A stretch of 64,000 bases of DNA. Source: Candidatus Omnitrophota bacterium (GTDB taxonomy: Bacteria; Omnitrophota; Gorgyraeia; Gygaellales; Profunditerraquicolaceae). Where the stretch lies: contig QZKA01000027.1 of NCBI GenBank assembly GCA_003598135.1, positions 20,788 through 84,787 on the forward strand, in the 5' to 3' direction. Below, one piece after another: positions 22,369 through 60,588 of this stretch. Positions within the stretch are counted from its first letter, which is position 1. Every line of letters begins with the position of its first letter. Made by a program: the position numbers and the translations under genes. The notes beneath the pieces were generated by a model. That model was not told the origin of the DNA and did no database searches. It saw only the letters and a program-made list of their open reading frames with translations.

Positions 22369-22398
22369 CCTGATTGGGTAACGAAAGAGGGCCTGGCA

Positions 22399-33279: not shown

Positions 33280-34189
33280 GTGCATTGAGCTGTCGCAGAG
33301 CAATTTTGAAATCATCATCTTGCCCGACGAACCTTTCTCTTTCGATTTATTGCCAAGGCAGGCATCTGTTCCTATTGCGATTATCCCCACCGGAAGCGTG
33401 ACTCCCGCAAAAAAAAGAGATCTTGGTGTTACGCATGCAAAAGGCGAAATACTGGCATTTTTGGATGATGACGCCTATCCCGACAAAAACTGGCTGGTAA
33501 ACGCAGTGAGGCATTTTCAAGACTCCAAAGTTGCGGCTGTTGCCGGCCCAGCAGTGACACCGACAACTGATTCGATAAAACAGAGGGCAAGCGGGGAGGT
33601 GTATTCCTCGTTTCTGGTGAGCGGCAGTTACGCCTACCGTTATTTTCCGAATCGACAAAGAGAAGTTGACGACTATCCGAGCTGTAATTTCCTGGTCCGT
33701 AAATCCGTAATGGAAGAGATAGGGGGGTTCAATACCAATTTTTGGCCGGGTGAAGATACCAAGCTGTGCTTAGAGATAACGAAGAAACTGCATAAAAAAA
33801 TCACCTACGATCCGAAAGTCCTGGTCTTTCATCACCGCAGGCCCTTGTTTATTCCTCATTTAAAACAAATTGCAAGTTACGCATTGCATCGCGGCTACTT
33901 TGTAAAAAAGTACCCTGAAACTTCTTTAAGGGTTGCATATTTTATACCAAGCGTCTTTCTTGCTGCGCTTGTCATCGGCGCAGTATTTTCTCTATTCTTC
34001 CCAGCCCTAATCAACATTTATATTGCTGGCCTGCTATGTTACTTCGTACTTGTGCTCTTGGAAGCTATACGTAAAAACCCTCGTTTGATTTTTTATGTAT
34101 TCCTTGGGATAATCCTGACGCACCTGACATACGGAGCTTATTTTATAAAAGGCTTATTCCGAAAAAGGCTCCCGGAGGAGGAAGAATGA
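33215..34189 (+). CDS. GT2 glycosyltransferase with a C-terminal transmembrane anchor
   Basis: VSIIIAVKTW...LDDDAYPD (DxD) is the GT-A core. Three predicted C-terminal TM helices follow. It overlaps the upstream GT2 by 65 nt. Confidence 0.65.
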   Translation: MTVSIIIAVKTWQRNLEECVVRCIELSQSNFEIIILPDEPFSFDLLPRQASVPIAIIPTGSVTPAKKRDLGVTHAKGEILAFLDDDAYPDKNWLVNAVRHFQDSKVAAVAGPAVTPTTDSIKQRASGEVYSSFLVSGSYAYRYFPNRQREVDDYPSCNFLVRKSVMEEIGGFNTNFWPGEDTKLCLEITKKLHKKITYDPKVLVFHHRRPLFIPHLKQIASYALHRGYFVKKYPETSLRVAYFIPSVFLAALVIGAVFSLFFPALINIYIAGLLCYFVLVLLEAIRKNPRLIFYVFLGIILTHLTYGAYFIKGLFRKRLPEEEE

Positions 34190-35697
34190 AGGTCATTATC
34201 TCATACCCTCCGCTTGATGCAGCGAAAGGCTGTCCGACTCTCGGCCAGAACAGGCAGTTCCAATATTTTAAAGACCCTACCTTTATTTATCCGGTAGTAC
34301 CGGCACAGGCCGCCACATTACTTAAAAACTCAGGTTTCAAGGTAATCTGGAATGATTGCATTGCCTTGGGCTGGACATATGAGCAGTTTCTAGACTTCGT
34401 AAAAGAGGAAAAGCCTGACTTAATCGCCTTTGAGACCAAAACTCCCGTAATCAAGCAGCATTGGCAGATTATCAATAATATCAAACGACTTTCGTCAGCC
34501 GGCTGCCGTCCGTGGATAGTGCTCTTCGGCGACCACGTGACTGCGCTTCCCGAAGAGTCGTTTCAAAATTCAGAGGTTGATTATGTTCTTACCGGAGGCG
34601 ATTACGACTTTTTGCTGCTTAACCTGTGCAAATTTCTATCTTCTCAACTCAATACTCAATACTCAATACACAATACATCACTAGAGCCCGGAATCTATTA
34701 TCGCGAACATAAAGAAGTAAAAAACACCGGAAAATTCCAGCTCAATCATGACTTGAGCCAACTCCCTTTTATAGACCGTGATCTTACAGGCTGGGAAATG
34801 TACGCGTATCAAAACGGAAACTATAAACGGACTCCGGGGACTTATATTATGAGCGGCAGGGATTGCTGGTGGGCGCGCTGTTCTTTTTGCTCATGGCCGA
34901 CTCTCTATCCGTCGTTTAGGGTAAGAAATATAGATAATGTATTGGATGAAATAGGCATGCTTTTGGAGCGTTACAAGGTACGCGAAATAATGGATGATAC
35001 GGGATGTTTTCCTGCTGGGGATTGGCTTGGAGATTTTTGTTGCGGTTTGCTGAAACGGGGATACGAGAAGAAAATGTACATAGATTGCAATGCCCGGTTC
35101 GGCGCTCTGAGTAAGATTGATTTCAAGTTAATGAGAAAGGCAGGGTTTCGTTTGTTGCTATTTGGCCTTGAGTCCGCCAATCAAAAGACACTCGATAGAA
35201 TAAATAAGAACGTCAAGGTAGAAAGAATGATCGCCGATTGTCAGAATGCCTCCAGGGCAGGCCTCTTTCCACACATCACTATTATGTTTGGCTATCCCTG
35301 GGAATCGTTCGAAGATGCATCCCGAACGCTTCAATTGGGGTCATGGTTGTTGAAAAAGGGATATGCGTACACTATGCAGGCGACTATTGTCATACCATAT
35401 CCCGGGACTCCTTTATTTCAGGAGTGTAAAGAAGAGGGATGGCTTAAGACCGTTGATTGGGATAGGTATGATATGAAAGAAGCAGTGATGCGTATTCCTT
35501 TTGCCGAAGATGCGATGCGCCAGTTGGTACAAGGCATGTATAAAGTCTCTTTCGGCCCTGAGTTTATCGCAAGAAGGTTATTCTCAATCAGAGACACGGA
35601 TGACGTAGCGTATTTCCTCCGTGCTGCAAAAAAAGTGCTCGGGCATATTTTTGACTTTAGGAATAAAAAGTCATGTAATGGAAAAAAGCAAGTATAG
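34186..35697 (+). CDS. Cobalamin-binding (class B) radical SAM protein with a non-canonical Cx4Cx2C cluster motif
   Basis: Has an N-terminal B12-binding-like Rossmann domain and the motif CWWARCSFC in place of the usual CxxxCxxC. A downstream GLESANQKTLD motif is typical of radical SAM proteins. The start overlaps the upstream GT2 stop (ATGA). Confidence 0.7.
   Translation: MKVIISYPPLDAAKGCPTLGQNRQFQYFKDPTFIYPVVPAQAATLLKNSGFKVIWNDCIALGWTYEQFLDFVKEEKPDLIAFETKTPVIKQHWQIINNIKRLSSAGCRPWIVLFGDHVTALPEESFQNSEVDYVLTGGDYDFLLLNLCKFLSSQLNTQYSIHNTSLEPGIYYREHKEVKNTGKFQLNHDLSQLPFIDRDLTGWEMYAYQNGNYKRTPGTYIMSGRDCWWARCSFCSWPTLYPSFRVRNIDNVLDEIGMLLERYKVREIMDDTGCFPAGDWLGDFCCGLLKRGYEKKMYIDCNARFGALSKIDFKLMRKAGFRLLLFGLESANQKTLDRINKNVKVERMIADCQNASRAGLFPHITIMFGYPWESFEDASRTLQLGSWLLKKGYAYTMQATIVIPYPGTPLFQECKEEGWLKTVDWDRYDMKEAVMRIPFAEDAMRQLVQGMYKVSFGPEFIARRLFSIRDTDDVAYFLRAAKKVLGHIFDFRNKKSCNGKKQV
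34649..34676 (+). repeat. Imperfect tandem heptanucleotide repeat (TCAATAC x3 perfect plus one ACAATAC) inside the radical SAM CDS
   Basis: Read directly from the sequence: tcaatac tcaatac tcaatac acaatac. The encoded peptide is NTQYSIHNT. Confidence 0.5.
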
Positions 35698-36703
35698 CTA
35701 TTCAGTCGACGGACATAACCGGCTTCTGATAAAATCCCCAGGAAGCAAAAAAGCTGTTTCCCCCAACGGACAATTCCGGGTAACCAGAGATAACGGACTT
35801 TCGTTTTGGCTCAATGAGCCTCCTTCCTGGAGAAAAGAAAACAACCTTCCTAAGAAAATTACTTTTACCGGAACCTGGCAGCTGGATGAAAAGAACGGCC
35901 TGGAGTTCATTCTGGATAAAAGCAGATATCAAAATGCAGGAGAGAAGATTAGCTTTAAAGGCAAGCTCTTTGCGGTTGACGGAAATTCTGTCGCCTTTTC
36001 GATTTCCAGTTATAAAGAAGCGGCTTTGCGCTTGAGCCGTATCCAGACATTCAGGCTTGCCGGCTTATGGCAGGCAGATAAATATAACCGCCTCAATTTT
36101 ATTATCAGCCGGAAATTGCATTCTGATACGCTTACATTTGAGGGCGGCTGGCAGATCAACAAAAACCAGCAGATTGTGTATATATGCGAGAAGACAGGCC
36201 TCAAGAACAAAACCAGGATTTCTGAAGAAGTGGTATTGCGGGGTTATTGGCAGATAGTAAATAATAGAAGGTTAGTATATATACTTTCCCATAACGGCGA
36301 TTCCTGTCTTGAGTTCCGCGTCCAGCTCGAAACACCTAATCTCTACCCTCAAAAGGGAAAAATAAAGTTTCGTCTTGGAGTAGGCCTTAAAAAGAACAGG
36401 CCACCTGTGCCAAAAACTATTTGTCTTTACGGAGAGTGGAAGTTTTCCCACAAGTGGGGGTTAGTTTTTGCAATGGATTACGGGGCAGGAACAGTACACA
36501 ACATTGAGTTCGGTTTTACAGTTGCAGTACATAACGCAGACAGTATTTCGGTAAGTTTGACAAACAAACAAAACGAACCCCTTGGTATTACGGTTACTTT
36601 TACGCATCGTTTTTTAAAAGAACATGGCGCGCAAGGTTTTATCCGGTTAAAACCGGAAAGGAAAAGGTCGGGCCTGGAAGCAGGATTTACTTTTCCGTTT
36701 TAA
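35678..36703 (+). CDS. Uncharacterised cytoplasmic protein with five internal G-x-W-Q beta-hairpin-like repeats
   Basis: The repeats are TGTWQLDEKNGLEFIL, AGLWQADKYNRLNFII, EGGWQINKNQQIVYIC, RGYWQIVNNRRLVYIL and YGEWKFSHKWGLVFAM. It has no signal peptide. The start is taken at MEKSK (35678), overlapping the upstream gene by 20 nt. Confidence 0.5.
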   Translation: MEKSKYSYSVDGHNRLLIKSPGSKKAVSPNGQFRVTRDNGLSFWLNEPPSWRKENNLPKKITFTGTWQLDEKNGLEFILDKSRYQNAGEKISFKGKLFAVDGNSVAFSISSYKEAALRLSRIQTFRLAGLWQADKYNRLNFIISRKLHSDTLTFEGGWQINKNQQIVYICEKTGLKNKTRISEEVVLRGYWQIVNNRRLVYILSHNGDSCLEFRVQLETPNLYPQKGKIKFRLGVGLKKNRPPVPKTICLYGEWKFSHKWGLVFAMDYGAGTVHNIEFGFTVAVHNADSISVSLTNKQNEPLGITVTFTHRFLKEHGAQGFIRLKPERKRSGLEAGFTFPF

Positions 36704-36876
36704 AGCCATTTCTGCAGCATAAAAAGCTTTTAAAAGTTCATAACGTATGGGATAATAATAAGTTAAATACCTTTTAAAACAAAGAATCTTTTAGAAAAAT
36801 GCGGCTGTACGGTTAATAGGGATAAACAGGCGCGTTGCTGGTTTATAATAAATTTTGCTTTGTAGAGGAGCCTAAA

Positions 36877-37905
36877 GTGAAAAAGATTAATTTAGGGATA
36901 ATCGGGTGTGGGCATTGGGGGCCGAATTATGTGAGGAACTTTAGTACGATGCCTGAAGCAAGAGTTGTATGGGTAAGCGACCTGAAGGAAGAAAGGCTCA
37001 CGCATATCAGGCAATTGTTCCCTGGCGTAAAGGTTTCCAAGGATAGTAATCGCGTCATCAACGACGATACAATTGACGCAGTAGTGATTGCTACCCCGAC
37101 GGTTACCCACTACAAAATGGCCCTACGGTGCCTGCAGGCGGGTAAACACGTGTTGGTTGAGAAGCCGATGACTACCGCTATCAAGGAGGCAGAAACACTC
37201 CTCAGTCTTGCCTCAAGGTGCAAAAAGACGTTGATGGTAGGCCATACCTTCACCTATAACAGTGCAGTGCAGGCAATAAAGGAACTTATCGGCCAGGACA
37301 AATTGGGCAGGCTTTACTATCTCTATTCTTCGCGGACCAATTTAGGGCCGTTACGCAGCGACGTGAATGTGTTATGGGATTTAGCTCCGCATGACGTCTC
37401 TGTATTTTCTTATCTGCTTGGCTGCCTGCCGGTCAAAGTAAGCGCTCAAGGCGCATCTTATTTGCGCAAGGGTATCGAGGACGTGGTGTTCATTACGCTC
37501 TACTTCCCGCGTAATATAATCGCCGGTATACATCTTAGCTGGCTTAATCCCCGCAAGGTCAGAGAGATAACGATTGTGGGGAACAAAAAGATGCTGGTGT
37601 TTGACGATCTCAACACTGCTAATCCCATTTATCTCTATAGTAAAGGAGTTATCCGTAAACAGATATCTCTTCCTTACTACGATACATTCGGTGAATTCCA
37701 GTATATCATCCGCGACGGTGACGCAACTATTCCTAAGGTGGCAATGAAGGAGCCTCTTACGGCTGAATGCCGCCACTTTTTGGAATGCGTTATGACAAGA
37801 AAAGAGCCCCATAGTAGCGGCAGGGACGGCTTAAATGTAGTACGGGTGCTTGCAGCTATCCAGAGTTCCCTGGAAGATAAAGGCCGCTTAAAGGAGGTGC
37901 GTTAA
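36877..37905 (+). CDS. Gfo/Idh/MocA-family NAD(P)-dependent sugar oxidoreductase (WbpB-like), copy 1
   Basis: KINLGIIGCGHWGPNYVRNF Rossmann fold plus the EKPMT family motif. A GTG start at 36877 sits 6 nt after a GAGGAG RBS and is preferred over the track's ATG at 36835. Confidence 0.75.
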   Translation: MKKINLGIIGCGHWGPNYVRNFSTMPEARVVWVSDLKEERLTHIRQLFPGVKVSKDSNRVINDDTIDAVVIATPTVTHYKMALRCLQAGKHVLVEKPMTTAIKEAETLLSLASRCKKTLMVGHTFTYNSAVQAIKELIGQDKLGRLYYLYSSRTNLGPLRSDVNVLWDLAPHDVSVFSYLLGCLPVKVSAQGASYLRKGIEDVVFITLYFPRNIIAGIHLSWLNPRKVREITIVGNKKMLVFDDLNTANPIYLYSKGVIRKQISLPYYDTFGEFQYIIRDGDATIPKVAMKEPLTAECRHFLECVMTRKEPHSSGRDGLNVVRVLAAIQSSLEDKGRLKEVR

Positions 37906-38565
37906 TTGAAAACAGCAGCCAATAAATCAGGAAGAGTTCGGTTTGGAAAGGATTGTTTGATTGACGAAGGAGTAATCTTGGGCTATCGTTCCGGCAGAAA
38001 GGGCTTGACCGGTATTTTGGTTATCGGCGCAGGAGCCCATTTGCGCAGTGGCACTGTTATTTATCAATCGAGCATAATAGGGAATCATCTAGAGACAGGC
38101 CATAATGTCGTAATCAGGGAACAGAACCATATTGGAAATAACTTTGCAATCTGGAATAATTCAACGGTTGATTACGGCTGTAAAATAGGAAATAATGTAA
38201 AAATTCATTCTAATTGTTATATAGCCCAATTTACCGTTCTTGAAGATGATGTATTTCTTGCGCCAGGCACTAGCATAGCCAATGACCTTCACCCGGGCTG
38301 TGACTTTTCTAAAAAGTGCCTTCGCGGCCCGACTATAAAAAAGGGAGCGCAGATAGGGGTCGGCTGCACCCTGCTTCCTTATGTTACGATTGGGGAAGGG
38401 GCCTTGATTGGCGCGGGCAGTGTAGTAACCAAGGATATACCTGCGCACTCGGTTGCCTACGGGAACCCAGCCAGGGTAGCAGGCTCTGCTTTTGATCTTA
38501 CGTGTAGATTCGAATTCACCGATAAGCCTTATCGCGAGGCGACCAAGGCTAAGCGTCGTAAGTAA
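37906..38565 (+). CDS. Left-handed beta-helix (hexapeptide-repeat) acetyltransferase, WbpD-like
   Basis: Hexapeptide repeats ([28 protein letters not shown]...[25 protein letters not shown]). It follows the Gfo oxidoreductase with a 0-nt gap. Confidence 0.75.
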
Positions 38566-38661
38566 TATTTTAGAATTCTGGCCACACCTTGGACTAAAGC
38601 AATAGGCGGTAGGCGCATAACGGCAAATTCTCAACACCTTCAAAAATTATTTGATTGTACT

Positions 38662-39969
38662 ATGCCTGAACAGCCGGTTGTATTAATTAATCCCCCAAGC
38701 CCTTTTTTGATTAACCAAAAAAGCTTTTCTCCGCTTGGCATACTCTATCTTGCCGCCGAATTGGAAAAAAATAACCTACCCGTGCGGGTTGTCGATTTGG
38801 CGGACTCAGAGAATGATATGGAGGCGGCCTTACGTTCGTATTTGGATGCCGAGCTATTTGGTATCAGCGCAACAACCCCGCAATATCCTTATGCAAGAGC
38901 GATAAAGGATGCGATCAAGAGAGCGCACCCTGAGGCGAAAGTAGTATTGGGTGGCGTTCATGGAACAGACCTCACTGAAAAGTGTCTTAATGACGGGTTT
39001 GATATCGTGGTTAAGGGAGAAGGTGAGAAGGCAATAGTTAAGATCGTGCACGATTTCGCAACGCATTCCCTTGATTACAGGACTTTGCAATTGCCTTATG
39101 AAAAAGATATGGATTCTTTGCCTCTTCCTGCGCGGCACCTGATTCCCCTGAAGGAGTACGGTTATGATATTGATGGTGTACCTGGGGCAAGCGTTATTAC
39201 CAGCAGGGGCTGTCCGTATCATTGCGTTTTTTGTTCAAAAGGCGTCTGGGAACAGGGGGTAAGGCTTCATAGCGTTGAGTACGTCGTAAGGGAGCTGGTC
39301 TCAATCATACAAAACTATACGATTAGCCATTTTCTTTTCCTTGATGATGCCATTAATATTGATAGAAACAGGTTGGTGCGGTTATGCACTGCGATAAAAC
39401 CGCTTGGAATAAAATGGCGTTGCTATGCGCGGGCGGATTTTCACGCCAAGGGTATGCTTATTGCGATGAAGGAAGCAGGTTGCGTGGAGATAGGTGTGGG
39501 CATTGAGAGCGGTTCGCAGAAGATATTAGACATCGTAGGCAAAGGGAGCACTGTGGAAAAGAATACCAGTTTTGTTAAAGAATGCAAATCTGTTGGCGTG
39601 GCGGTGAATGCCTTTGTGATGATTGGGCTACCCGGTGAGACGCATGAAACGGTCGAAGCCACAAAAAAATGGATAGGAGATGCAATGCCGGATAAGTTTG
39701 GTTTTAATATTTTTATGCCTTATGCTGGCACTCCGGTCTGGCGCAACCTAGAAAAATATGATTTGTGTATCGCAGATATTCCCGAGGAACATAGCTGGGT
39801 AAAGGGCAGGCCAGGCCAGCACCATTGTTATGTCTCGACAAACGAGTTGAGCTCTAGTGAAATCTTAAGGTTGTTCAACGAGTTGTTTGATTATTACACA
39901 CAATTGTTACATTGGAGGCCCGGAGTAGGCAGGGTAAAGCAGACTGTCCCGGGTAACACAGTATGCTGA
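38662..39969 (+). CDS. Cobalamin-binding (class B) radical SAM protein, copy 2
   Basis: N-terminal B12-binding domain (VVLINPPSP...PLGILYLAAEL) and a canonical cluster motif, RGCPYHCVFCSK. Confidence 0.85.
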   Translation: MPEQPVVLINPPSPFLINQKSFSPLGILYLAAELEKNNLPVRVVDLADSENDMEAALRSYLDAELFGISATTPQYPYARAIKDAIKRAHPEAKVVLGGVHGTDLTEKCLNDGFDIVVKGEGEKAIVKIVHDFATHSLDYRTLQLPYEKDMDSLPLPARHLIPLKEYGYDIDGVPGASVITSRGCPYHCVFCSKGVWEQGVRLHSVEYVVRELVSIIQNYTISHFLFLDDAINIDRNRLVRLCTAIKPLGIKWRCYARADFHAKGMLIAMKEAGCVEIGVGIESGSQKILDIVGKGSTVEKNTSFVKECKSVGVAVNAFVMIGLPGETHETVEATKKWIGDAMPDKFGFNIFMPYAGTPVWRNLEKYDLCIADIPEEHSWVKGRPGQHHCYVSTNELSSSEILRLFNELFDYYTQLLHWRPGVGRVKQTVPGNTVC

Positions 39970-41483
39970 TAGGCGCGTTGTTGTTTTTTGTGGGGTATCT
40001 GTTTCAGTGCTGGCCGCGGTTTTTTAACCCTTATTTCGGGGTGGATGTATGGAGGAATCTTTCTATCGCCGATGAAATCAGAAAGTATAAGCGGCTGCCC
40101 AGGCGCAATCTTCCCAAATATATGTTAAAGGGGCCGTTTGACTATCCGCCGCTGCTCAATATATTTCTGTCGCTTTTTTCTAAAAAGTGGCTAGAAAAAT
40201 ACCAGGGTTTTATCGCGCCTCTTTTTGATGCAATCACCGGATTTATCCTTTTTTCATTCACCCTTTTCCTTACGAGAGAAGTCGCAGTTGCGCTCCTGGC
40301 GCAGCTTCTTTTTGTTACTAATCCCCTTGCAGCTATGGAAAACGCAAGCCTTACTGCGAGAAGCCTGGGTAATTTGACTTTTTCATTGACATTCCTTTTT
40401 ATTATTCTTTTCACCGTATTCCATTCATGGGCCTATTTTCTGTTGGCAATCATTTTTGGATTTTTGGTGATTTTTGCCCAGAAAATGGCATCCCAGGCCT
40501 TGATTATGATATCCGTTATCTTTATGCTCTTCAGAATGGATGTTTCCTATGTTCTTATCGTTTCTCTAAGTATACTGGTTGCACTCTTATTGGCAGGCGA
40601 TTTGTATGTCCGGATCGCCAGTGGACATCTTTCTGTGCTTAGATACTTTAGAAAGATTCTTGATAATCGCTATGCGCATCAGGTATCAGGCAATATTGCA
40701 TTAAAAGGCGGGAATGATTTCATCGATAAAGTTAAGTCTTATGTGAATAAACAACCGTTTTTGGCAATGCTGGCCAGTGCTCCTCTTGTCACCATGGGGT
40801 TGGTGCTGTCCTTGTGGGGACTAATTTTTATACCGAAGAGTTTTTCGATACCCCCCGAGCTTTATCTTTACCATATATTGTTTCAATTTTGTCTATGGCT
40901 AATAGTACTGTATTACTTTGGGATTCTTACCGCGCAAGTGCGCGCTATACAATTTTTAGGCGAGGGCATGAAATACTTGGTCTTTGCAAGTTTCCCTGCT
41001 TCTTTTATCGTGGCATACGTGTCGTTTTATGAAATCCGGTTAAACGCTAATTTCATTCCTTTAGTGTTTAGTTTGGTTGTTGTCGCAATGAGCGTAGCCC
41101 AAACGGTTTTCCTTCAGAAGAAAGGGATCGTCAACGACCGGCAGCGCACCCTTACCCCGGTTTTGCGGCAAGTTATGGATTTTTTACAGAATGAGCCTGG
41201 CGAAATCCGTCTGGCGACTATACCTTTTTCGCTCTCGGATATCATTGCCTATTTTACAAAGTGTAATGTTTTTTCATCCGATTCGGCGTTTGTCTTGGGC
41301 AATGATCCTGCGTATACTGACTTTTATCCGGTGTTAAAGAGGCCGCTTGAAGAAATCCTAAGCGTCCACAATATCAATTATTTGCTGATAGATAAGAACT
41401 ATGTGAACCCTGAGGCTTTGCAACTTGCGGCGGGCTCAAAGATTGTCCTTGAGAGAGAGAACCTGTGTCTGATAAAACGCTAA
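39963..41483 (+). CDS. Polytopic membrane protein (about 12 TM helices plus a C-terminal soluble domain of about 110 aa); possible GT-C-fold glycosyltransferase or polymerase/ligase-like protein
   Basis: The first extracytoplasmic loop reads GVDVWRNLSIADEIRKYKR, a DE..R(Y/K) motif reminiscent of the ArnT/PMT loop-1 DE(x)RY. There is no WWDYG motif. Topology only; no confident family assignment. Confidence 0.4.
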   Translation: MLIGALLFFVGYLFQCWPRFFNPYFGVDVWRNLSIADEIRKYKRLPRRNLPKYMLKGPFDYPPLLNIFLSLFSKKWLEKYQGFIAPLFDAITGFILFSFTLFLTREVAVALLAQLLFVTNPLAAMENASLTARSLGNLTFSLTFLFIILFTVFHSWAYFLLAIIFGFLVIFAQKMASQALIMISVIFMLFRMDVSYVLIVSLSILVALLLAGDLYVRIASGHLSVLRYFRKILDNRYAHQVSGNIALKGGNDFIDKVKSYVNKQPFLAMLASAPLVTMGLVLSLWGLIFIPKSFSIPPELYLYHILFQFCLWLIVLYYFGILTAQVRAIQFLGEGMKYLVFASFPASFIVAYVSFYEIRLNANFIPLVFSLVVVAMSVAQTVFLQKKGIVNDRQRTLTPVLRQVMDFLQNEPGEIRLATIPFSLSDIIAYFTKCNVFSSDSAFVLGNDPAYTDFYPVLKRPLEEILSVHNINYLLIDKNYVNPEALQLAAGSKIVLERENLCLIKR

Positions 41484-42724
41484 ATACCAATTTCAGAGTT
41501 TCGTTATTGCGGTGTCAGTCAGCAAAGCAGATACGGCAAAAGCTATATGCGGCCCTTGTTTCTTTTTCGGATATTTTTCCGACCTCTAAAGATGCGCATA
41601 TCCTAATCAAGCCGAATTTAAACAGCAACATGAACGCGTTAACAGGCAATACGACTGATTTGAGGCTACTGGATGCGCTTTTAAGCTACTTGCGCGATCA
41701 AGGGTATGGCGCTATTACGATAGGGGAAGGAACCAGTAGCGGCTTTCATAGAGAAAAAATCAATATATTCACTCGTCTTTGCATTGACAAGCTGGCTAGG
41801 CGCTTCAATGCGAAACTGCTCGATCTTAATTATGCCCCTTATGAGTATGTCGAGTTTGAGCACGGGGAAAAAGCAGCCGTGGCTCGAATATGCAAGGAAG
41901 CGGATTTTTTTATCAACCTTCCTAAATTAAAGACGCATTTTGAGGCCCTTCTTTCTGTGTGTTTGAAAAATATGATGGGTGCGTTAGTGGGCCTTCCCAA
42001 CAAACAAAAGACCCACCGCAGCCTTTTTAAAAATATTCTCAATCTCAATAAATTCGTAAAGCCGCATTTGCACATTATTGACGGCCTTATTGCCATGGAG
42101 GGCACAGGTCCTTCATCAGGGACTCCGATCAAGACTGATGTGGTGCTTATTGGCACCGATCCATATCTGTTGGATTTAGCGTGTGCTAAAATCGCAGGCT
42201 TTGATTATAAAGAGATTCCCTATTTGAGGTTGGCAGAAGAGCGAGGCATCATTAATCAAGATTATTTAAATTTTGTTGAAGCGTTTATCCCTAAAGAAGT
42301 TATCAGGATTTTCAAAAGGCCACACGTCAACTCGCTAGTCAGGTTCGTTAATCATCCTAATTGGCAGTATAGTTTTATCAAAATAAGGCTATCTCCTTTA
42401 GTGAATAAGCTGTTTTCTTTTAAAAGCTTTGGGAGGCTGCTTAATGCGGCAGGCCTACGCCAGGATGTTTTTGACAAGCAGGATTTGTGCCTTAAGGATA
42501 TCTATTTTGAGGCCTCGTTGTGCGATAACTGTAAAAAGTGCCAAGCCTATTGTCCGGTTGGTCTTGTTTTGCCTGAACAGTTACATCCGCTGCATGAACA
42601 GTGTATCGGCTGCCTTTATTGTTTTTTGGTCTGTCCTAAAAAGGCAATCAAAATAAAGGGAACCCTTGGGTTTTTTAAGGAGCAGTTAAAACGTTACGAC
42701 AACATTACGCGCTCAATAGCATAG
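41465..42724 (+). CDS. DUF362 domain protein fused to a C-terminal di-[4Fe-4S] ferredoxin domain
   Basis: DUF362 signatures (ILIKPNLN, KTH, NMMG, IIDGLIAMEGTGPSSGTP) plus two CxxCxxCxxxCP motifs (CDNCKKCQAYCP; CIGCLYCFLVCP). The start codon is uncertain; a GTG at 41465 overlaps the upstream gene by 19 nt. Confidence 0.7.
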   Translation: MSDKTLNTNFRVSLLRCQSAKQIRQKLYAALVSFSDIFPTSKDAHILIKPNLNSNMNALTGNTTDLRLLDALLSYLRDQGYGAITIGEGTSSGFHREKINIFTRLCIDKLARRFNAKLLDLNYAPYEYVEFEHGEKAAVARICKEADFFINLPKLKTHFEALLSVCLKNMMGALVGLPNKQKTHRSLFKNILNLNKFVKPHLHIIDGLIAMEGTGPSSGTPIKTDVVLIGTDPYLLDLACAKIAGFDYKEIPYLRLAEERGIINQDYLNFVEAFIPKEVIRIFKRPHVNSLVRFVNHPNWQYSFIKIRLSPLVNKLFSFKSFGRLLNAAGLRQDVFDKQDLCLKDIYFEASLCDNCKKCQAYCPVGLVLPEQLHPLHEQCIGCLYCFLVCPKKAIKIKGTLGFFKEQLKRYDNITRSIA

Positions 42725-42740
42725 CGCAAGGAGCCCGGAG

Positions 42741-43754
42741 ATGATTAGAATAGGCGTAATCGGTTGCGGATACTGGGGGCCTAACCTTATCAGGAATTTC
42801 AGTGAAGTCAGGGACGCGCACGTGATCGTCTGTGCAGACGTTAGGGAGGACCGCTTACAATTTGTAAAACAAAGATACCCGGCTGTTGAGGTTACGAAAG
42901 ATTACAAGAGGCTGTTGCAGCGTAAAGATATTGACGCGGTAAGCATTGCGACGCCAGCGTCAACCCATTTTTCTCTTGCGCGCGAGGCCCTTTCGTACAA
43001 TAAGCACGTGCTTATAGAAAAGCCTATGACTAAGACCTCAGGTCAAGCAGAAGAGCTTATACGAGCGGCAAAAAGCAAGAAAAGGGTTTTGATGGTCGGC
43101 CATACCTTTGAGTATGCGGGAGCAGTGCGCAAGATCAGAGAGCTCTTGAGCCGCGGGGAAATCGGCGATATCTTTTATTTTGATTCAACCAGGGCAAATT
43201 TGGGCCTTTTCCAGAAAGACGTCAATGTTATTTGGGACCTTGCTCCTCATGATCTCTCTATTATGCTCTACGCACTCAAACTGCATCCTGTTCGGGTACT
43301 GGCGGTAGGAAGCGCCTTTGTCAATTCTTCGATAGAGGATATTTGCTATATAACTTTGTTTTTTCCTAAGAAGATCATCGGGCATATACATATTAGTTGG
43401 CTGGCGCCTGTCAAATTTAGACGCACGGTTATTGCGGGGAGCAGGAAAATGATCGTATATGATGATGTCGAGAATATTGAAAAGATAAAGGTGTTTGAAC
43501 GCGGAGTCACGATTAAAGAAAACAACGGGCCCAAAGGGATACTGGAACGCCAGCTCTTTTACCAGATGGGAGACGTTTGGAGTCCCCGGATTGACACTCA
43601 GGAGCCCTTAAAAATCGAATGCGAGCATTTTATTGATTGCGTCAAAAAAGGCAAGACGCCTTCCAGTGATGGGAAAAATGGCCTTGAGATCGTGAGGATT
43701 CTGGAGGCGGTGGATGAATCGCTTAAGGAGGGCGGGAAAATAATAGATATTTAG
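42741..43754 (+). CDS. Gfo/Idh/MocA-family oxidoreductase, copy 2
   Basis: IRIGVIGCGYWGPNLIRNF and EKPMT motifs. About 45% identical by eye to copy 1. Confidence 0.8.
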   Translation: MIRIGVIGCGYWGPNLIRNFSEVRDAHVIVCADVREDRLQFVKQRYPAVEVTKDYKRLLQRKDIDAVSIATPASTHFSLAREALSYNKHVLIEKPMTKTSGQAEELIRAAKSKKRVLMVGHTFEYAGAVRKIRELLSRGEIGDIFYFDSTRANLGLFQKDVNVIWDLAPHDLSIMLYALKLHPVRVLAVGSAFVNSSIEDICYITLFFPKKIIGHIHISWLAPVKFRRTVIAGSRKMIVYDDVENIEKIKVFERGVTIKENNGPKGILERQLFYQMGDVWSPRIDTQEPLKIECEHFIDCVKKGKTPSSDGKNGLEIVRILEAVDESLKEGGKIIDI

Positions 43755-44483
43755 ATGGATGGACGGCTAAACCAGAAAGAACAAGTAGGTGTAAGTATTA
43801 TTCTGCCCGCTTTCAACGAGCGGAATAACCTTAAAACGGTGGTTGAATCCGTGATTGCCTCTGTTGCTTGCGCTGTGAATACGTACGAAGTTATCATAGT
43901 TGATGACGGAAGCAATGACGGGACCGGTGAAGTGGCGCGTTTATTGACAAGCCTGCCAAATGTAAAGTTTTTTCGGCACGAGGCCAATTTGGGGATGGGT
44001 GAGGCGGTCAAGACAGGCATCCGTCACGCTGTGTTTCCGATAGTAATGGATATCCCTTGCGATAATCAGTTTAATGCGAAAGATATTTTGTCATTTATCG
44101 AAAAAATTAAAGTCGCCGATATCGTGGTGGGGTATCGGATCAATAAAGCCCAGGGATTCAGGCGGAAATTTTTTAGCGGATTCAATATCCTGCTGCTTAA
44201 GGTACTTTTTGGGCTCAGGCTTAAGGACCCTACATGGGTGAAAATGTGCAGGAAACAAATTTTTGACAGCATCGGAATAGAATCTAAAGGATTTTTCTGG
44301 GAGACGGAAGTTCTGGTAAAGGCTAAGAATCAAGGGCTAAGAATCGAAGAAGTGCCCACGACCATGCAGCCAAGGCTTAGCGGCCAGTCAAAGGGAAATA
44401 GTTTTTTTAGGGCTGTTGATGTATTGTTCTCAATGTTACGCTTGAAAACTGCTTTTGTATTTTCAAATTTTCCGAAGAGATGA
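43755..44483 (+). CDS. GT2 glycosyltransferase, Dpm1-like (polyprenyl-phosphate sugar synthase type)
   Basis: VSIILPAFNERNNL...VIIVDDGSNDGT. Length 242 aa. The start abuts the Gfo-2 stop (TAGATG). Confidence 0.8.
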   Translation: MDGRLNQKEQVGVSIILPAFNERNNLKTVVESVIASVACAVNTYEVIIVDDGSNDGTGEVARLLTSLPNVKFFRHEANLGMGEAVKTGIRHAVFPIVMDIPCDNQFNAKDILSFIEKIKVADIVVGYRINKAQGFRRKFFSGFNILLLKVLFGLRLKDPTWVKMCRKQIFDSIGIESKGFFWETEVLVKAKNQGLRIEEVPTTMQPRLSGQSKGNSFFRAVDVLFSMLRLKTAFVFSNFPKR

Positions 44484-45871
44484 AAGTTGCGCTAATAAAC
44501 CCTTCAGTACAAAAGGTAATCGAACGTCGCTATGACAGGCCGGTATTTCCACACTTGGGGCTTGGCTATATTGCCTCTTATTTGCGTAAGCGTGACGTTG
44601 ATTGCCATGTGGTAGACGCAAAGATGGAAGGCTTAAGTCTTCCTGGGCTTTTGGGGCGCTTGAAAGAAATCAGGCCGCATTTAGTCGGCTTGACATCTAT
44701 GACGCACGAAATAGGCAGTGTGCATTGCGTTGCCAAGCGGATAAGGGAATTATTTCCAGATGCCAAGATTGCTTTGGGTGGAGTGCATGCAACTTTCTTA
44801 CCCGCAGAAACTTTGCGTGATTATCCAGAATTTGACTTTGTAGTTTCCGGGGAAGGTGAAGAGACTTTTTTTGATCTTTATAACACGTTATCCTGCGGTA
44901 AACCGAACGTAAGTACTGTTGCAGGCTTAAGTTTTCTTGAGGGTGGTACTATCAAAACGAATCCTTCCCGGGAGAAGATCTACAATCTTGATGCTCTGCC
45001 TTTTCCTGACTGGGAAAATTTTCCTGTGGCAAGGGAATATCCGGTGATGACAAGTAGGGGATGTCCGTTTGAGTGTATTTTTTGCGCCAACCCTAACGGA
45101 AGGGTCTTGCGCGCGCGTTCCGCTGAAAGTGTAGTAAGTGAGTTCGAATGGGTAGTGAATAGGTTTCATCCCCAAAGGATTGTTTTCTGGGATGAAGGCT
45201 TGACGTTTGACCGAAGGAGGGCAGAAGCAATTTTTGATGCACTGATTAAGAAAGGTTTGCAGAAGAAGGTAAAATGGTATGCTCAGACCCATGTCTTGAG
45301 TGTCGATTACCTTCTTTTTAAAAAGATGAAAGAGGCAGGTTGTGTTTCTATCGGGTTAGGGATTGAGTCTGGCAATGAAAAAATCCTATCCCGCCTTCAG
45401 AAGAAGACAAATATTGCAAAGATTAAAATGGCCGTCAAAGATGCCAAAAGAGCGGGCTTGCCGGTTGAGGGGTATTTTATTTTTGGCCATCCCTATGAAA
45501 CGAAAGAAACCGCCATTGATACCATTCGGTTTGCAGTAAAGCTTAACCCCGAATATCCTGTATTCGGTATTATGGTTCCTTATCCAGGCACCGAGGTCCT
45601 GCGTATGGCTCAGAAGGGAGAAGGGGATTACCGTTTGCTTTCAAAAGATTGGTCTGACTATAATAAACAACTGGGCCATGCACTTGAGCTTGCCCATTTG
45701 AATCGCCGCCAGCTTGAGCTATTTCAGCTTAAGGGATATATATATGTGTTTATCTGTAACTTAAGACTAATAAGCCTAGTGAGGTTCTTTTTTAAGTACA
45801 GAAAAGAAGCGGTTGCCTTTATGAAAAAAATGCTGTTACGAAAGGAAAATCATGGACCTGAGGCAATTTAA
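44480..45871 (+). CDS. Cobalamin-binding (class B) radical SAM protein, copy 3
   Basis: B12-binding N-terminus (KVALINPS...LGLGYIASYL) and TSRGCPFECIFCANP. Its start overlaps the upstream GT2 stop. Confidence 0.85.
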   Translation: MKVALINPSVQKVIERRYDRPVFPHLGLGYIASYLRKRDVDCHVVDAKMEGLSLPGLLGRLKEIRPHLVGLTSMTHEIGSVHCVAKRIRELFPDAKIALGGVHATFLPAETLRDYPEFDFVVSGEGEETFFDLYNTLSCGKPNVSTVAGLSFLEGGTIKTNPSREKIYNLDALPFPDWENFPVAREYPVMTSRGCPFECIFCANPNGRVLRARSAESVVSEFEWVVNRFHPQRIVFWDEGLTFDRRRAEAIFDALIKKGLQKKVKWYAQTHVLSVDYLLFKKMKEAGCVSIGLGIESGNEKILSRLQKKTNIAKIKMAVKDAKRAGLPVEGYFIFGHPYETKETAIDTIRFAVKLNPEYPVFGIMVPYPGTEVLRMAQKGEGDYRLLSKDWSDYNKQLGHALELAHLNRRQLELFQLKGYIYVFICNLRLISLVRFFFKYRKEAVAFMKKMLLRKENHGPEAI

Positions 45872-46907
45872 CCCCTTAAAGGTATTAAACCATTGGGAGA
45901 CGCTTAAGGTGGTTATCGAAGGGAAGAACCCTTATCCGGTCTCCTGCGAAATTGACCCGAGCAATATCTGTAACCATAATTGTATCTGGTGTATTAATGA
46001 CCGTTTTAGAAAGTCGAACAAAGCAATGATTCCAAAAGAGTTAATGTGTAGGATCATTAAGGAAATTGCTGCGTGTGGCGTAAAGTCCATTGCGTTTACG
46101 GGCGGAGGAGAGCCGTTAATGAACCCGGCAAGCATAGAGGCTATTCAGTTGACGAGACGAAAGCGGATGGATGTCGGAATTGTAACTAATGGCGAGCTTC
46201 TCGATCCTGAGAAATGCCGGGTTATTGTGGATAATTGTAGTTATGTTCGTATAAGCCTTGATGCCGGTACCCGCAAGACGCATACCGTTGTCCACGCGCC
46301 CCTTAACAAGCGACAGGATGTGTATAGAAAAATCCTGGACAATATAGGTTTACTCGTAAAATACCGGCAGAAAAATAAAAGGAATATTACGATAGGGATT
46401 GGATATTTGGTAAATTTAGATAATTATCACGAAATAGCCAGGGCTGCGAAATTGGTACGGGATTCAGGTGTTGATTATATGCAGATCCGTCCTGCATTCA
46501 TGCCTGGAAAGCAGCTTTCCGAAAGAATCCGTTTTGAGGCAGAGCGTTTGATCCAAGAAACTCTTGCGTTATCCGATGGGCGGTTTTATGTGTTTCCGAT
46601 TCTGCACCGTTTCGATGAGGTAATAAACCTTGACCGTGCATACGACCGTTGCTTGGGCCACGGCCTCGTGGGAGTAGTTGCGGCAAACGCAAAGATGTAT
46701 ATCTGCTGTCAGCTAAGGGGGGAGGAGGCATTTTGTATCGGCGACCTGCGCCGGGCATCATTTTCTCAAATATGGAAAGGCAAAAGGAGGAAGTCAGTAA
46801 TTAAGTCGATAAACCTCGACCGTTGCCCTCCTTGTCGTTACAACAAATATAACGAAATCTTGGATTATCTTGCGAGTGAAAATAAGACACACAAAAATTT
46901 TCTATAA
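45852..46907 (+). CDS. Radical SAM protein without a B12 domain, with a C-terminal Cys cluster (SPASM/twitch-like); paralog a
   Basis: CNHNCIWC is the CxxxCxxC cluster motif, near the N-terminus. C-terminal cysteines sit at CPPCRYNKYNE. The N-terminus MDLRQFN is shared with paralog a' at 47860. Confidence 0.75.
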   Translation: MDLRQFNPLKVLNHWETLKVVIEGKNPYPVSCEIDPSNICNHNCIWCINDRFRKSNKAMIPKELMCRIIKEIAACGVKSIAFTGGGEPLMNPASIEAIQLTRRKRMDVGIVTNGELLDPEKCRVIVDNCSYVRISLDAGTRKTHTVVHAPLNKRQDVYRKILDNIGLLVKYRQKNKRNITIGIGYLVNLDNYHEIARAAKLVRDSGVDYMQIRPAFMPGKQLSERIRFEAERLIQETLALSDGRFYVFPILHRFDEVINLDRAYDRCLGHGLVGVVAANAKMYICCQLRGEEAFCIGDLRRASFSQIWKGKRRKSVIKSINLDRCPPCRYNKYNEILDYLASENKTHKNFL

Positions 46908-46910
46908 CGT

Positions 46911-50069: not shown

Positions 50070-50073
50070 GGAT

Positions 50074-51507: not shown

Positions 51508-51552
51508 TAGTGCTTTTAACGAAATACTATAATGAAGGGAGATTAAAATAGT

Positions 51553-52584: not shown

Positions 52585-52590
52585 CAAGAT

Positions 52591-53649: not shown

Positions 53650-53652
53650 AGC

Positions 53653-54381: not shown

Positions 54382-54383
54382 CT

Positions 54384-56258: not shown

Positions 56259-56264
56259 AAAGAA

Positions 56265-57794: not shown

Positions 57795-57803
57795 AGGGCT
57801 CCA

Positions 57804-60585: not shown

Positions 60586-60588
60586 GAT

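Follow-up and report, generated by a model that had tools for sequence, protein, structure and literature searches.

The question raised by this locus is what a polytopic membrane protein of 506 aa does among the glycan genes of the window (the whole stretch of 64,000 nucleotides that was analysed). The original prediction regarded it as a possible GT-C glycosyltransferase supplied with Dpm1-type lipid-sugar donors, and equally as a possible Wzy-like polymerase or ligase. The ORF and the polytopic nature of its product were confirmed, and the product is identical to the NCBI entry 'hypothetical protein C4540_05465 [Candidatus Omnitrophota bacterium]'. The ORF shares 7 nt with the radical-SAM gene upstream of it and 19 nt with the DUF362 gene that follows. 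The features discussed here are collected in Table 1.

Table 1. Positions in the window of the GT-C-like gene, its candidate functional elements and the neighbouring genes
Feature	Position	Strand	Basis or remark
SemiSWEET	30902..31165		
Wzx-like protein, Pfam Polysacc_synt, 12 TM; candidate flippase of lipid-linked sugar	31229..32482	+	
Short GT2, polyprenyl-phosphate sugar synthase class; conserved partner	32479..33279	+	Best matches ArnC, P. furiosus Dol-P-Man synthase, GtrB, AglJ
GT2 with three C-terminal hydrophobic segments, MftF/EpsD/AglG-like; conserved partner	33215..34189	+	Orthologs at 270-450 bits across phyla
B12-binding radical SAM enzyme; conserved partner	34186..35697	+	Orthologs at 340-600 bits beside the GT-C gene
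Target ORF, 506 aa; 11-TM GT-C(A)-fold protein with C-terminal alpha/beta domain	39963..41483	+	AF2 model, Foldseek
D28 codon (motif F-G-V-D-V-W), directly after TM1; candidate catalytic/acceptor-activating Asp	40044..40046	+	Conservation
D37-E38 codons (within ADEIRKY, residues 36-42), first juxtamembrane helix; pair not conserved	40071..40076	+	126-member alignment
D60-Y61-P62-P63 ('DYPP') codons, end of EL1; Y61 94%, P62 99%, P63 96%	40140..40151	+	Conservation
R133 codon, 99% conserved, loop 2/TM4 boundary; candidate phosphate ligand	40359..40361	+	Conservation; role inferred
Loop EL4, residues 212-264; amphipathic helix and loop with H222, W/F229, H239	40596..40754	+	AF2 model, conservation
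Codons 332-338 (L-G-E-G-M-K-Y); G333 99%, G335 91%, Lys/Arg337 79%, Y338 99%	40956..40976	+	Conservation
C-terminal alpha/beta domain, residues 391-506, 116 aa; P421 and P456 conserved	41133..41480	+	AF2 model
DUF362 and 2x[4Fe-4S] ferredoxin-domain protein; overlaps the target stop	41465..42724	+	
NAD-dependent epimerase/dehydratase (SDR)	46911..47879	+	
GT4 glycosyltransferase; recurrent in the module of several phyla	48912..50069	+	

Fold and architecture of the protein

In the AlphaFold2 (AF2) model (pLDDT 92.7, pTM 0.92), the protein has 11 TM helices, not the about 12 first counted, together with juxtamembrane helices. TM1 leads into a helical loop, EL1, which opens at D28 and closes with 'DYPP' and is followed by ten TM helices and a C-terminal domain. 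Such a combination of 11 TM helices and a C-terminal domain is a standard GT-C plan (PMC6801728; GT136 in PMC11127046). The C-terminal soluble domain, previously put at about 110 aa, was recovered close to that length, and is similar to the globular domain at the C-terminus of archaeal AglB (3vu0, Foldseek prob 0.99), without its WWDYG motif. The loop at the EL5 position has 9 residues only.

When this model was searched with Foldseek, all 24 PDB matches with E ≤ 0.001 were GT-C(A) enzymes. The matches included STT3 (6ezn, E = 7.8e-7), AglB (7e9s/3waj), DPY19 (7zli), PglB (5ogl), ArnT (5f15/5ezm), AftA and ALG12, followed by ALG9, Pmt4, AftB and Emb. STT3, AglB and PglB were the best structural matches overall (E about 1e-6, TMq 0.53-0.57), and the highest TM-score was obtained for DPY19 (7zli, TMq 0.60). 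As modelled, the protein has the GT-C structural class A fold, so that of the two options originally put forward, the GT-C one held.

Similarity to Wzy, a ligase or a transporter, which the original prediction had named as the outcome that would speak against a GT-C, was looked for by Foldseek, and no confident case of it was found among the matches listed. A true polymerase or ligase of the Wzy/WaaL families, or a transporter or flippase, would be polytopic and at home in a glycan cluster beside Wzx with no other Wzy found. Moreover, the Wzy clan GT-C3 (GT122-124, Pfam EpsG) shares with our protein an N-proximal loop with a conserved G-x-D, Arg and His (PMC10920833), as well as an occurrence in Wzx-containing clusters; its catalytic loop, however, follows TM2 and not TM1. 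MFS transporters in the PDB reached only prob <0.1 and a TM-score of about 0.12, and the 50 best PDB matches listed included neither WaaL nor a SEDS structure (RodA, FtsW). The GT122 (Pfam EpsG) control, E. coli O104 Wzy, behaved differently: its model (pLDDT 89.4) had no significant PDB match (best E = 0.81), and the protein has 370 aa, no C-terminal domain and an unrelated profile. PF14897 is carried by all O104-Wzy homologs and by no member of the target family. In hhalign comparisons, the target family gave a probability of 0.07% against the EpsG/GT122 profile and 0.13% against a single E. coli WaaL sequence. An identity as a true Wzy, WaaL or transporter is largely refuted by the fold search and the Wzy control, and we regard it as hardly credible.

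Family conservation and comparison with known GT-C enzymes

The protein has no Pfam match at E ≤ 1, and 81 family members have none at E ≤ 0.1; the family is likewise without matches among NCBIfam models and PDB sequences, profile searches included. About 1,843 cluster representatives were found in metagenomes. The protein belongs to a large, so far nameless GT-C class A family from uncultured bacteria.

Conservation was examined in 126 diverse representatives with a mean column identity of 24%. The sole invariant column is D28, followed by Ala, Thr, Val or Ser. All GT-C enzymes are known to share one residue only, an Asp that directly follows TM1 as EL1 begins (PMC7801869), and by analogy the position of D28 is probably equivalent to this universal catalytic Asp. 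Further analysis revealed that the positions conserved in at least 75% of representatives lie in the loops of one face, in the adjoining TM ends, in TM helices or in the C-terminal domain, and that the loops of the opposite face contain none. The L-G-E-G-M-K-Y stretch may be a lipid-phosphate-binding motif comparable to the Arg/Tyr motif of other GT-Cs (PMC7801869).

The string ADEIRKY, which had been read as an ArnT/PMT-like DE loop, is indeed present, whereas the DE motif itself did not stand, because the pair is not conserved and no PMT/PMT_2 or ArnT profile match was obtained. Of the 126 members, 89 have an acidic residue at position 37 and 24 have Arg or Lys there; Glu at position 38 is limited to 34, and 25 contain an acidic pair in this stretch. 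Pfam PMT (PF02366) and PMT_2 (PF13231) are missing from the family, unlike the 120 ArnT homologs listed, all of which carry PF02366 and nearly all PF13231 as well; the hhalign probability against a shallow ArnT profile was 0.33%. What the protein shares with ArnT/PMT (GT83/GT39) is the GT-C(A) fold, seen in the 5f15/5ezm matches, and an Asp immediately after TM1. It differs from them in having this single Asp, D28, and not a DE pair, and in an opposite charge distribution. By eye, the end of EL1 also offers a common aromatic/acidic-x-Pro element (F-E-K-P in ArnT, F-D-Y-P here), but the EL1 likeness (D...F-E/D-K/Y-P) is not significant, since 797 of 1000 shuffles scored at least as high as the real sequence.

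With STT3/AglB/PglB (GT66), the protein has in common an odd number of TM helices, the Asp at the start of EL1, here presumably catalytic, and the C-terminal alpha/beta domain, which is similar to the AglB-S2 globular domain. The differences are 11 TM helices in place of 13, a short C-terminal domain, the short loop at the EL5 position, basic EL1 and EL4, and the lack of an STT3 Pfam match. As originally noted, there is no WWDYG: a similar motif was found in none of the 126 members, the target included. An Asn-X-Ser/Thr sequon is very unlikely to be the acceptor. DPY19, the C-mannosyltransferase of GT98 and the closest match by TM-score, uses a Dol-P-Man donor; unlike the target, it is eukaryotic, has 13 TM helices and modifies a Trp of proteins, and the two are not similar in sequence.

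GT136, represented by ORF12 of Citrobacter youngae, is the GT-C of a three-component pentofuranosylation system (PMC11127046). It resembles the target in its 11 TM helices, in the small helical domain that follows TM1, in an Asp beside TM1 (D31 in GT136, catalytic there), in the additional domain that comes after TM11, and in having an epimerase gene beside the GT-C gene and a MOP-superfamily (MATE) flippase as partner, to which the candidate Wzx-like flippase would correspond. Its donor synthase, however, is a PRPP-dependent PPPRS and that of the target would be a GT2, and its C-terminal domain is a beta-rich CBM and that of the target alpha/beta, a comparison made on published architecture alone.

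Conserved gene neighbourhood and a proposed pathway

In Omnitrophota, Nitrospirota, Nitrospinota and Chloroflexota, homologs of the GT-C gene are flanked by orthologs of both GT2 partners (32479 and 33215) and of the B12-binding radical SAM, Wzx-like, GT4 and SDR genes, and the Patescibacteria homolog has GT2s and sugar-modifying genes on its flanks. The radical SAM orthologs adjoin the GT-C gene in Omnitrophota, Nitrospinota and Chloroflexota. A counterpart of the SDR epimerase lies directly downstream of it in Chloroflexota, Nitrospinota and some Omnitrophota loci, with an overlap of 4 nt in three loci (L015, L017 and L019). The DUF362-ferredoxin gene is syntenic with the target only in Omnitrophota and Nitrospirota loci, and SemiSWEET was found in Omnitrophota loci only among those examined. 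Translation of the GT-C gene is probably coupled to that of its overlapping neighbours, which encode cytoplasmic enzymes: the DUF362-ferredoxin protein or the SDR epimerase.

Of five GT2s in the window that had been described as Dpm1-like, all exist but only four are short Dpm1/ArnC-like proteins, and the fifth (33215..34189) is TM-anchored. Against solved structures, the GT2 at 32479 ranked ArnC (E = 1.5e-16), Dol-P-Man synthase (5mlz, 1.3e-15, near full length) and GtrB at the top, and AglJ was its top NCBIfam match, although the GT2s score far short of the cut-offs set for the curated (equivalog) families. ArnC-like GT2s occur in most loci examined, full-length ones at 192 and 127 bits among them. 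The suggestion of lipid-phosphate-sugar donors fits this recurrence of a Dpm1/ArnC-like GT2 beside the GT-C gene in different phyla. The window also codes for UDP-sugar dehydrogenases, a VimE-like enzyme and AsnB, suggesting that the cluster makes uronic-acid-type sugars. No initiating phosphoglycosyltransferase (PGT) of the PHPT or PNPT type, Wzy, WaaL or Wzz was detected in the window, in agreement with the original prediction, and no homologs of these or of ArnE/F were found in 18 loci covering 390 kb.

We think it probable that the protein is the terminal membrane transferase of a polyprenyl-monophosphate-based glycosylation pathway, which would need no initiating PGT. The AglJ/ArnC/Dol-P-Man-synthase-like GT2 (32479) would put a sugar on polyprenyl phosphate. 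This lipid-P-monosaccharide might be used directly, in the style of GtrB/GtrA/GtrC, ArnC/ArnT or AglD/AglR/AglS; or the TM-anchored GT2, the GT4 and other GT2s might first lengthen it, with modification by the radical-SAM enzymes, in the archaeal style of AglJ-AglG...AglB. Within this explanation, a monosaccharide donor is only marginally preferred over an oligosaccharide. The Wzx-like protein would flip the lipid-linked sugar. The GT-C would then hold the lipid phosphate via R133, Y61 and K/R337-Y338, and D28 would activate a hydroxyl or amine of the acceptor. The sugar or glycan would thereby be transferred outside the cytoplasm, probably onto the glycan made by the cluster itself or onto a surface protein. 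The fold, the size of the family, its conservation pattern and the gene association are results of the analysis; the donor, the roles of the residues, the acceptor and the side of the membrane are inferred.

Precedents exist in three-component systems of a MOP-superfamily flippase and a GT-C (PMC11127046), and in AglD/AglR/AglS and the Dol-P-based assembly ending in AglB (PMC3871713). The gene context is similar to the archaeal Dol-P route, with AglJ-like and AglG-like GT2s and a Wzx-like flippase (PMC3871713). As in ArnT/GtrABC-type systems, an ArnC-like GT2 is encoded nearby; unlike in GtrA/ArnE/F systems, no GtrA or ArnE/F-type flippase is found in the target loci, and the module has the Wzx-like protein. 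The absence of a sequence-level link to any known GT-C family in Pfam, NCBIfam and PDB profiles was counted against the terminal-transferase reading.

A protein with the same GT-C(A) fold could also act as a functional analogue of Wzy, an O-antigen ligase or an O-oligosaccharyltransferase, polymerising or ligating (to lipid A-core or protein) a Wzx-flipped, pyrophosphate-linked unit initiated by a PGT encoded elsewhere. The protein is the sole conserved polytopic one besides Wzx in a cluster that is rich in cytoplasmic GTs and in which no Wzy or WaaL was found, and its best structural matches are oligosaccharyltransferases using lipid-linked oligosaccharides. E. coli-type clusters are likewise without their own PGT, because wecA lies elsewhere. 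We nevertheless find such an analogue quite improbable: none of 82 members has a Wzy_C or EpsG match in Pfam, the conserved GT2 neighbour is of the monophosphate type (ArnC/DPMS/AglJ-like), and lipid-P-monosaccharides are the donors for four of the five GT-C(A) CAZy families that have been classified by structure (Table 1 of PMC10920833). The negative EpsG profile comparison and the lack of WaaL/SEDS among the best structural matches listed point the same way. The family is present in Patescibacteria and Chloroflexota. Both phyla are taken to be without LPS, which argues against a lipid A-core ligase.

Charge distribution and membrane orientation

The GT-C superfamily has been described as topology-preserving, with the catalytic loops outside in every characterised GT-C (PMC6801728). 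We compared the charges on the two sides of the membrane, with counts that are based on AF2 helix boundaries. Across the 126 members, the conserved-loop side contains on average 20.5 K+R and the other side 1.9; the excess is at least 3-fold in all 126, and the mean net charge is +9.5 versus -0.4. EL4 is strongly basic (family mean K+R 9.4, net +5.8). For the target, loops of up to 70 aa contain 3 K/R on the 'GT-C-cytoplasmic' side and 23 on the conserved-loop side, whereas E. coli ArnT, with 17 in and 11 out, obeys the positive-inside rule. If the conserved-loop side is outside as in other GT-Cs, the positive-inside rule is thus broken in every member. The original prediction had proposed checking whether the motif faces the periplasm; the charge distribution speaks against periplasmic conserved loops, without a clean outcome. 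The bias is the reverse of that in ArnT and of the positive-inside rule, and it is the weightiest objection to the terminal-transferase reading with its extracytoplasmic step.

The charge pattern suggests that the family might sit the opposite way round from all its known relatives. The GT-C(A) fold would be inserted N-out, with D28, EL1, EL4 and the C-terminal domain in the cytoplasm, and would act at the inner leaflet. It could pass polyprenyl-P-linked sugars, modified in this form by the cytoplasmic radical-SAM enzymes and the epimerase, to a growing lipid-linked glycan before Wzx export, or could be an unconventional initiating enzyme on polyprenyl-P. Besides the charge distribution, which mirrors that of ArnT, several features are in favour of such an insertion. 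N-tails in the family are short and slightly acidic, with no in-frame start upstream of the target ORF able to add a basic tail, and about 1.8 K/R follow TM1 within 9-10 residues, besides a conserved Arg at the helix end. Moreover, no initiating PGT was found in any of the 18 loci, the gene overlaps are with genes for cytoplasmic enzymes, and nothing in the Cys pattern points to disulfides.

However, this arrangement would depart from the preserved topology of all characterised GT-Cs, and the C-terminal domain resembles an extracytoplasmic domain in AglB. EL1, EL4 and the C-terminal domain probably form one domain of roughly 230 aa, for which the positive-inside rule is weaker. The basic charge of the loops could instead serve to bind an anionic acceptor, in keeping with the uronic-acid-type sugars expected from the cluster, and the counts hang on the modelled helix boundaries. 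On balance, we consider an inverted GT-C rather unlikely. Somewhat less likely still is the full proposal of a first GT-C-fold family inserted in reverse, whose catalytic Asp, basic loops and AglB-like domain would all be cytoplasmic. It would act at the inner leaflet, either on polyprenyl-P-sugars tailored by cytoplasmic radical-SAM enzymes and the epimerase while bound to the lipid, or as a substitute for the initiating PGT. If it were true, a reversed GT-C would serve a pathway that Omnitrophota share with phyla as far apart as Chloroflexota and Patescibacteria.

Two minor observations were counted against the terminal-transferase reading. Extramembrane Cys residues amount to about 1.3-1.5%, with no bias towards even numbers and frequently with a lone Cys419, and one position that is His in 121 of the 126 members is Gln in the subclade of the target.

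Conserved residues and predicted fold of the target family

GT-C enzymes catalyse those steps of N-, O- and C-linked protein glycosylation, cell-wall assembly and LPS modification that take place outside the cytoplasm, and GT-C families are still being founded on single characterised members, as with GT136 from 2024. The target gene proved to be exactly the open reading frame that the original prediction described, and both the ADEIRKY string (residues 36-42) and the C-terminal soluble domain (116 aa) were found in its product, which is identical to a 'hypothetical protein' in a Candidatus Omnitrophota MAG. The frame has no further in-frame start upstream (it is listed from the first start codon past the preceding stop); its 5' end overlaps a B12-radical-SAM gene by 7 nt and its 3' end a DUF362/ferredoxin gene by 19 nt. 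The single target sequence gave no match in Pfam-A or NCBIfam even at permissive thresholds, and no PDB sequence matched the target or the family profiles. Searches of Pfam, NCBIfam and PDB with the target and two family profiles (A1 and A2) returned only chance matches (E 0.37-0.59), and when 81 divergent members were run against Pfam, only scattered single chance matches appeared. A word-indexed search retrieved 52 relatives, each about 500 aa. When a profile was run exhaustively against 1.84 billion cluster representatives, 1,843 of these matched with E<=1e-3, and for 532 the E-value was <=1e-30. With about 1,800 sequence clusters not detected by Pfam or NCBIfam, this is a candidate new CAZy family, so far confined to uncultured phyla, its named members coming from MAGs of Omnitrophota, Patescibacteria, Nitrospirota, Nitrospinota and Chloroflexota. 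The 509-aa Pfam-less ORF at 56265, considered as a possible paralog in the window, is unrelated to the target; its C-terminal half is VimE-deacetylase-like.

Conservation was counted in 126 representatives with a mean column identity of 24%. The sole invariant column is D28, found in the context G-x-D-[A/T/V]-[W/Y], 6-7 residues past TM1. The essential Asp of all GT-C enzymes also stands just after TM1 (D55 in ArnT, D77 in Pmt1, D56-type in OSTs; PMC7801869), and the Asp at the catalytic position of GT136 is D31 (PMC11127046); by analogy, D28 would be the position of the essential GT-C Asp. The DE pair within ADEIRKY, which had been likened to that of ArnT/PMT, did not hold up as a conserved feature: position 37 is Glu/Asp in 89 and Arg/Lys in 24 of the 126 sequences, only 34 have Glu at position 38, and an acidic pair is present in just 25. 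The invariant D28 takes the place of the DE pair. Further conserved positions (counts out of 126) are Y61-P62-P63 (94-99%), R133 (125), His at target Q173 (121), Q178 (121), H222 (111), Trp at target F229 (116), H239 (103), G333 (125), G335 (115), K/R337 (99), Y338 (125), P421 (121) and P456 (122). Assigned by TM parity, the loops of one face, the adjoining TM ends, the TM helices and the C-terminal domain hold all the conserved positions, and the loops of the opposite face contain none. The target and its close Omnitrophota relatives carry Gln173 (40479..40481) and Phe229 (40647..40649) instead of the family His and Trp, so that two positions among those best conserved in the family are altered specifically in this subclade.

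The AlphaFold2 model of the target, built with 44 homologs as input, has a mean pLDDT of 92.7 and a pTM of 0.92. In this model, TM1 (residues 2-21) is followed by a 52-residue loop (EL1) with a helix (29-42) and short strands, then by ten more TM helices, with a second long loop (EL4, 212-264) after TM7, and finally by an alpha/beta domain (391-506). Foldseek returned 24 PDB matches with E<=0.001, and all 24 are GT-C class A glycosyltransferases, including yeast and human STT3, archaeal AglB, PglB, DPY19, ArnT, AftA and ALG12. The best TM-score was that of DPY19 (0.60), and ALG9, Pmt4, AftB and Emb proteins came next in the list. In addition, the C-terminal domain matched the isolated C-terminal globular domain of AglB-S2 (3vu0) with a Foldseek probability of 0.99. 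Despite this OST-like fold and C-domain, a WWDYG-like motif was found in none of the 126 family members, and the target is therefore not a canonical N-oligosaccharyltransferase. ArnT 'D-E...F-E-K-P' aligns by eye with target 'D-V...F-D-Y-P', which is a lead only; in local alignment, the first 110 residues matched E. coli ArnT no better than shuffled controls, and the EL1 likeness was dropped as evidence. WaaL, RodA and FtsW were absent among the 50 best PDB matches listed, and MFS-type transporters scored a Foldseek probability below 0.1 (TM about 0.12). A PNPT (WecA/MraY-like) fold was also considered and rejected, with no such structure in the PDB matches listed, and the BFVD viral library yielded uncharacterised proteins only.

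The Wzy families GT122-124 form clan GT-C3 and have an N-proximal catalytic loop with a conserved Asp, two Arg and a His (Meitil et al., PMC10920833), superficially like that of the target family; a Wzy control was therefore run. The control was E. coli O104 Wzy (GT122 according to the Supplementary Data of Meitil et al., PMC10920833; 15753..16865 in the O104 locus L022), whose collected homologs all match Pfam EpsG PF14897. Its AF2 model (pLDDT 89.4) had no significant PDB match (best E 0.81), its only likenesses above noise being weak ones to AftD (prob 0.6) and PglB (prob 0.2), both with TMq 0.43. As the control gave no significant PDB match, the fold search is discriminating, and a GT122-type Wzy can be rejected as the identity of the target. 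In hhalign comparisons, every probability for A2 was <1%: against E. coli ArnT and WaaL as single sequences, against an ArnT alignment, and against the EpsG/GT122 alignment of O104 Wzy and its homologs (0.07%). The negative result with the ArnT alignment is weak because that profile is shallow (homologs all >=76% identical). In the O104 Wzy model, a conserved R-F-D-V-G-x-D-Y loop follows TM2; this and the weak likenesses hint that clan GT-C3 may be related very distantly to GT-C(A), having one more helix at the N-terminus. Structure prediction and the discriminating control thus support GT-C rather than Wzy, ligase or transporter, and confident similarity to these folds, which the original prediction had named as speaking against it, appeared neither in the fold search nor through the GT122 Wzy. 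The target represents a GT-C(A) family that is not yet curated and whose partner genes are conserved; judged by their defining sequence features, the GT66, GT83/39, EpsG-Wzy and WaaL families do not include it.

Gene neighbourhood and proposed pathway

All window ORFs of >=150 aa that match a protein family lie on the + strand, and the glycan-biosynthesis cluster occupies the window from about 23.6 kb onward. Only four proteins in the 64-kb window, including the target, have >=2 predicted TM segments.

Features of the window, with positions in window coordinates
Feature	Position	Strand	Details
Housekeeping and envelope genes	1..23586	same as cluster	LptD-like protein, UDP-glucose dehydrogenase, PilM, secretin, RNase E/G, Obg, ProB, NadD-like protein, Rpe, phosphomannomutase, PlsC, IspH, ribosomal protein S1, TyrRS
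SemiSWEET	30902..31165	+	87 aa, 3-TM; NF037968 85.8 bits (cut-off 80); Pfam PQ-loop/MtN3
Wzx-like protein	31229..32482		12-TM
GT2 32479	32479..33279		short GT2
GT2 33215	33215..34189		three C-terminal hydrophobic segments
B12-binding radical-SAM enzymes, five	34186 (34186..35697), 38662, 44480, 50017, 60589		
360-aa ORF	35621..36703	+	no Pfam or NCBIfam match
Hexapeptide acyltransferase	37906		sugar gene
Target	39963..41483	+	ATG start, 506 aa
DUF362-ferredoxin	41465		inside radical-SAM-dense cluster
SPASM-type radical-SAM enzymes, four	45852, 47860, 59602, 62045		
Sugar genes	51553..59605		GFO/IDH/MocA oxidoreductases, UDP-GlcNAc 2-epimerase, ATP-grasp, PHP phosphoesterase
AsnB-type amidotransferase	54351		sugar gene
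509-aa protein	56265		sugar gene; VimE-like C-half

We compared the window with 17 further loci from five phyla, 13 genome loci having been found with a narrow alignment and hence being biased to members with the FGVD[VT]WR[NH]L motif. A recurrent module surrounds the target homologs, consisting of orthologs of GT2 32479, of the TM-anchored GT2 33215 (270-450 bits) and of the B12-radical-SAM 34186 (340-600 bits), together with a Wzx-like gene and a GT4. The target family would be the missing membrane step of this glycan module, which is unusually rich in radical-SAM enzymes. Moreover, an SDR epimerase/dehydratase lies directly 3' of the GT-C homolog in L015, L017, L019, L013, L016 and L021 (Chloroflexota, Nitrospinota and some Omnitrophota), overlapping it by 4 nt in the first three. 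The arrangement is reminiscent of DprE1/E2 of mycobacteria and of the GT136-system epimerase, whose substrate is the lipid-linked donor. For GT2 32479, the top solved structures were ArnC, P. furiosus Dol-P-Man synthase and GtrB, and the top NCBIfam model was AglJ, all with scores far below equivalog cut-offs. ArnC-like GT2s are present in most loci, two of them being full-length ArnC-like proteins.

We propose that the module may operate a polyprenyl-monophosphate pathway without an initiating phosphoglycosyltransferase, in which a Dpm1/ArnC/AglJ-type GT2 would be the loader, a MOP-family protein the flippase and the GT-C the final transferase, making a complete set. The same loader/flippase/GT-C logic is seen in GtrB/GtrA/GtrC and ArnC/ArnEF/ArnT, and further precedents are the GT136 system, which includes a MATE flippase and a neighbouring epimerase (PMC11127046), and the archaeal Dol-P routes AglD/AglR/AglS and AglJ...AglB (PMC3871713). 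If the pathway truly starts at an AglJ/Dpm1-like GT2 and involves no phosphoglycosyltransferase, it would be a bacterial parallel to the archaeal Dol-P-based route. The donor could be a monosaccharide, as used by the majority of GT-C(A) families (Table 1, PMC10920833), with the GT-C moving a single sugar. Alternatively, the GT-C could move an assembled, radical-SAM-tailored glycan from an oligosaccharide donor, which would be consistent with the OST-like top Foldseek matches, the AglB-like C-domain and the AglG-like second GT2. It would also be consistent with the finding of neither a phosphoglycosyltransferase nor a Wzy in the loci probed: E. coli WcaJ, WecA, WaaL, two Wzy types, WzzE and ArnE/F had no match in 390 kb.

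Charge distribution and membrane orientation

Lys/Arg residues were counted in loops of <=70 aa with hand-checked TM boundaries, assuming the canonical GT-C orientation, and in the target 3 of them face the cytoplasm, compared with 23 on the 'periplasmic' face. For E. coli ArnT, an automatic count was uninformative (12 TMs, 12 vs 11 K/R), and the recount with hand-checked boundaries and 13 TMs gave 17 inside and 11 outside. Across the family (n=126), the conserved-loop face and the opposite face have mean K+R of 20.5 and 1.9 and net charges of +9.5 and -0.4, respectively, and all 126 members show a >=3-fold K+R excess on the conserved-loop face. The N-tails (mean 6 residues) are slightly acidic, the TM1-to-D28 stretch has about 1.8 K/R in addition to a conserved Arg, and EL4 has a mean net charge of +5.8. 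Under classical topogenic rules, this charge pattern places the conserved loops in the cytoplasm, which would contradict the topology described as 'preserved' in the GT-C superfamily (PMC6801728). Such an inverted GT-C is, in our judgement, the less likely reading. Two others would keep the standard orientation: the conserved loops may fold into one large domain exempt from the positive-inside rule, or an anionic, uronic-acid-rich acceptor may be what their basic surfaces bind. The family's extramembrane Cys pattern (1.3-1.5%, a frequent lone Cys419, no even-number bias) gives no hint of an oxidising compartment, and Cys co-variation revealed no pairing pattern suggesting disulfides or a metal site. 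Reversed orientation, more unusual than a plain GT-C(A) family, nevertheless has a non-trivial chance; if real, it would overturn the view of an invariant GT-C topology and make lipid-linked-donor glycosyl transfer possible at the cytoplasmic face.

Further features of the glycan cluster

The radical-SAM density of the cluster (34186..63196) is exceptional, and these enzymes may modify the sugar while it is attached to a nucleotide or a lipid. The sugar genes suggest a sugar of the 2,3-diacetamido-uronic-acid type that bears amide or other modifications, and if the glycan product is acidic, this could account for the basic GT-C loops. In another Omnitrophota MAG (L001), the ortholog of the B12-radical-SAM 34186 is 989 aa long (3827..6796) and has weak and faint intein-splicing and LAGLIDADG Pfam matches, which suggests an intein within this gene. 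The 360-aa ORF shares its first 77 nt with the radical-SAM gene before it and is kept only in the two closest loci, L009 and L012, a SemiSWEET lying there in other Omnitrophota loci. SemiSWEET synteny was seen in L001 (6781..7044), L009 (922..1185) and L010 (824..1093); a sugar-transporter fold adjoining Wzx is unusual in a lipid-linked glycan module, and the SemiSWEET could be a small flippase or precursor importer. The source organism is diderm, and the glycan cluster adjoins tyrS in the window and likewise in L001.
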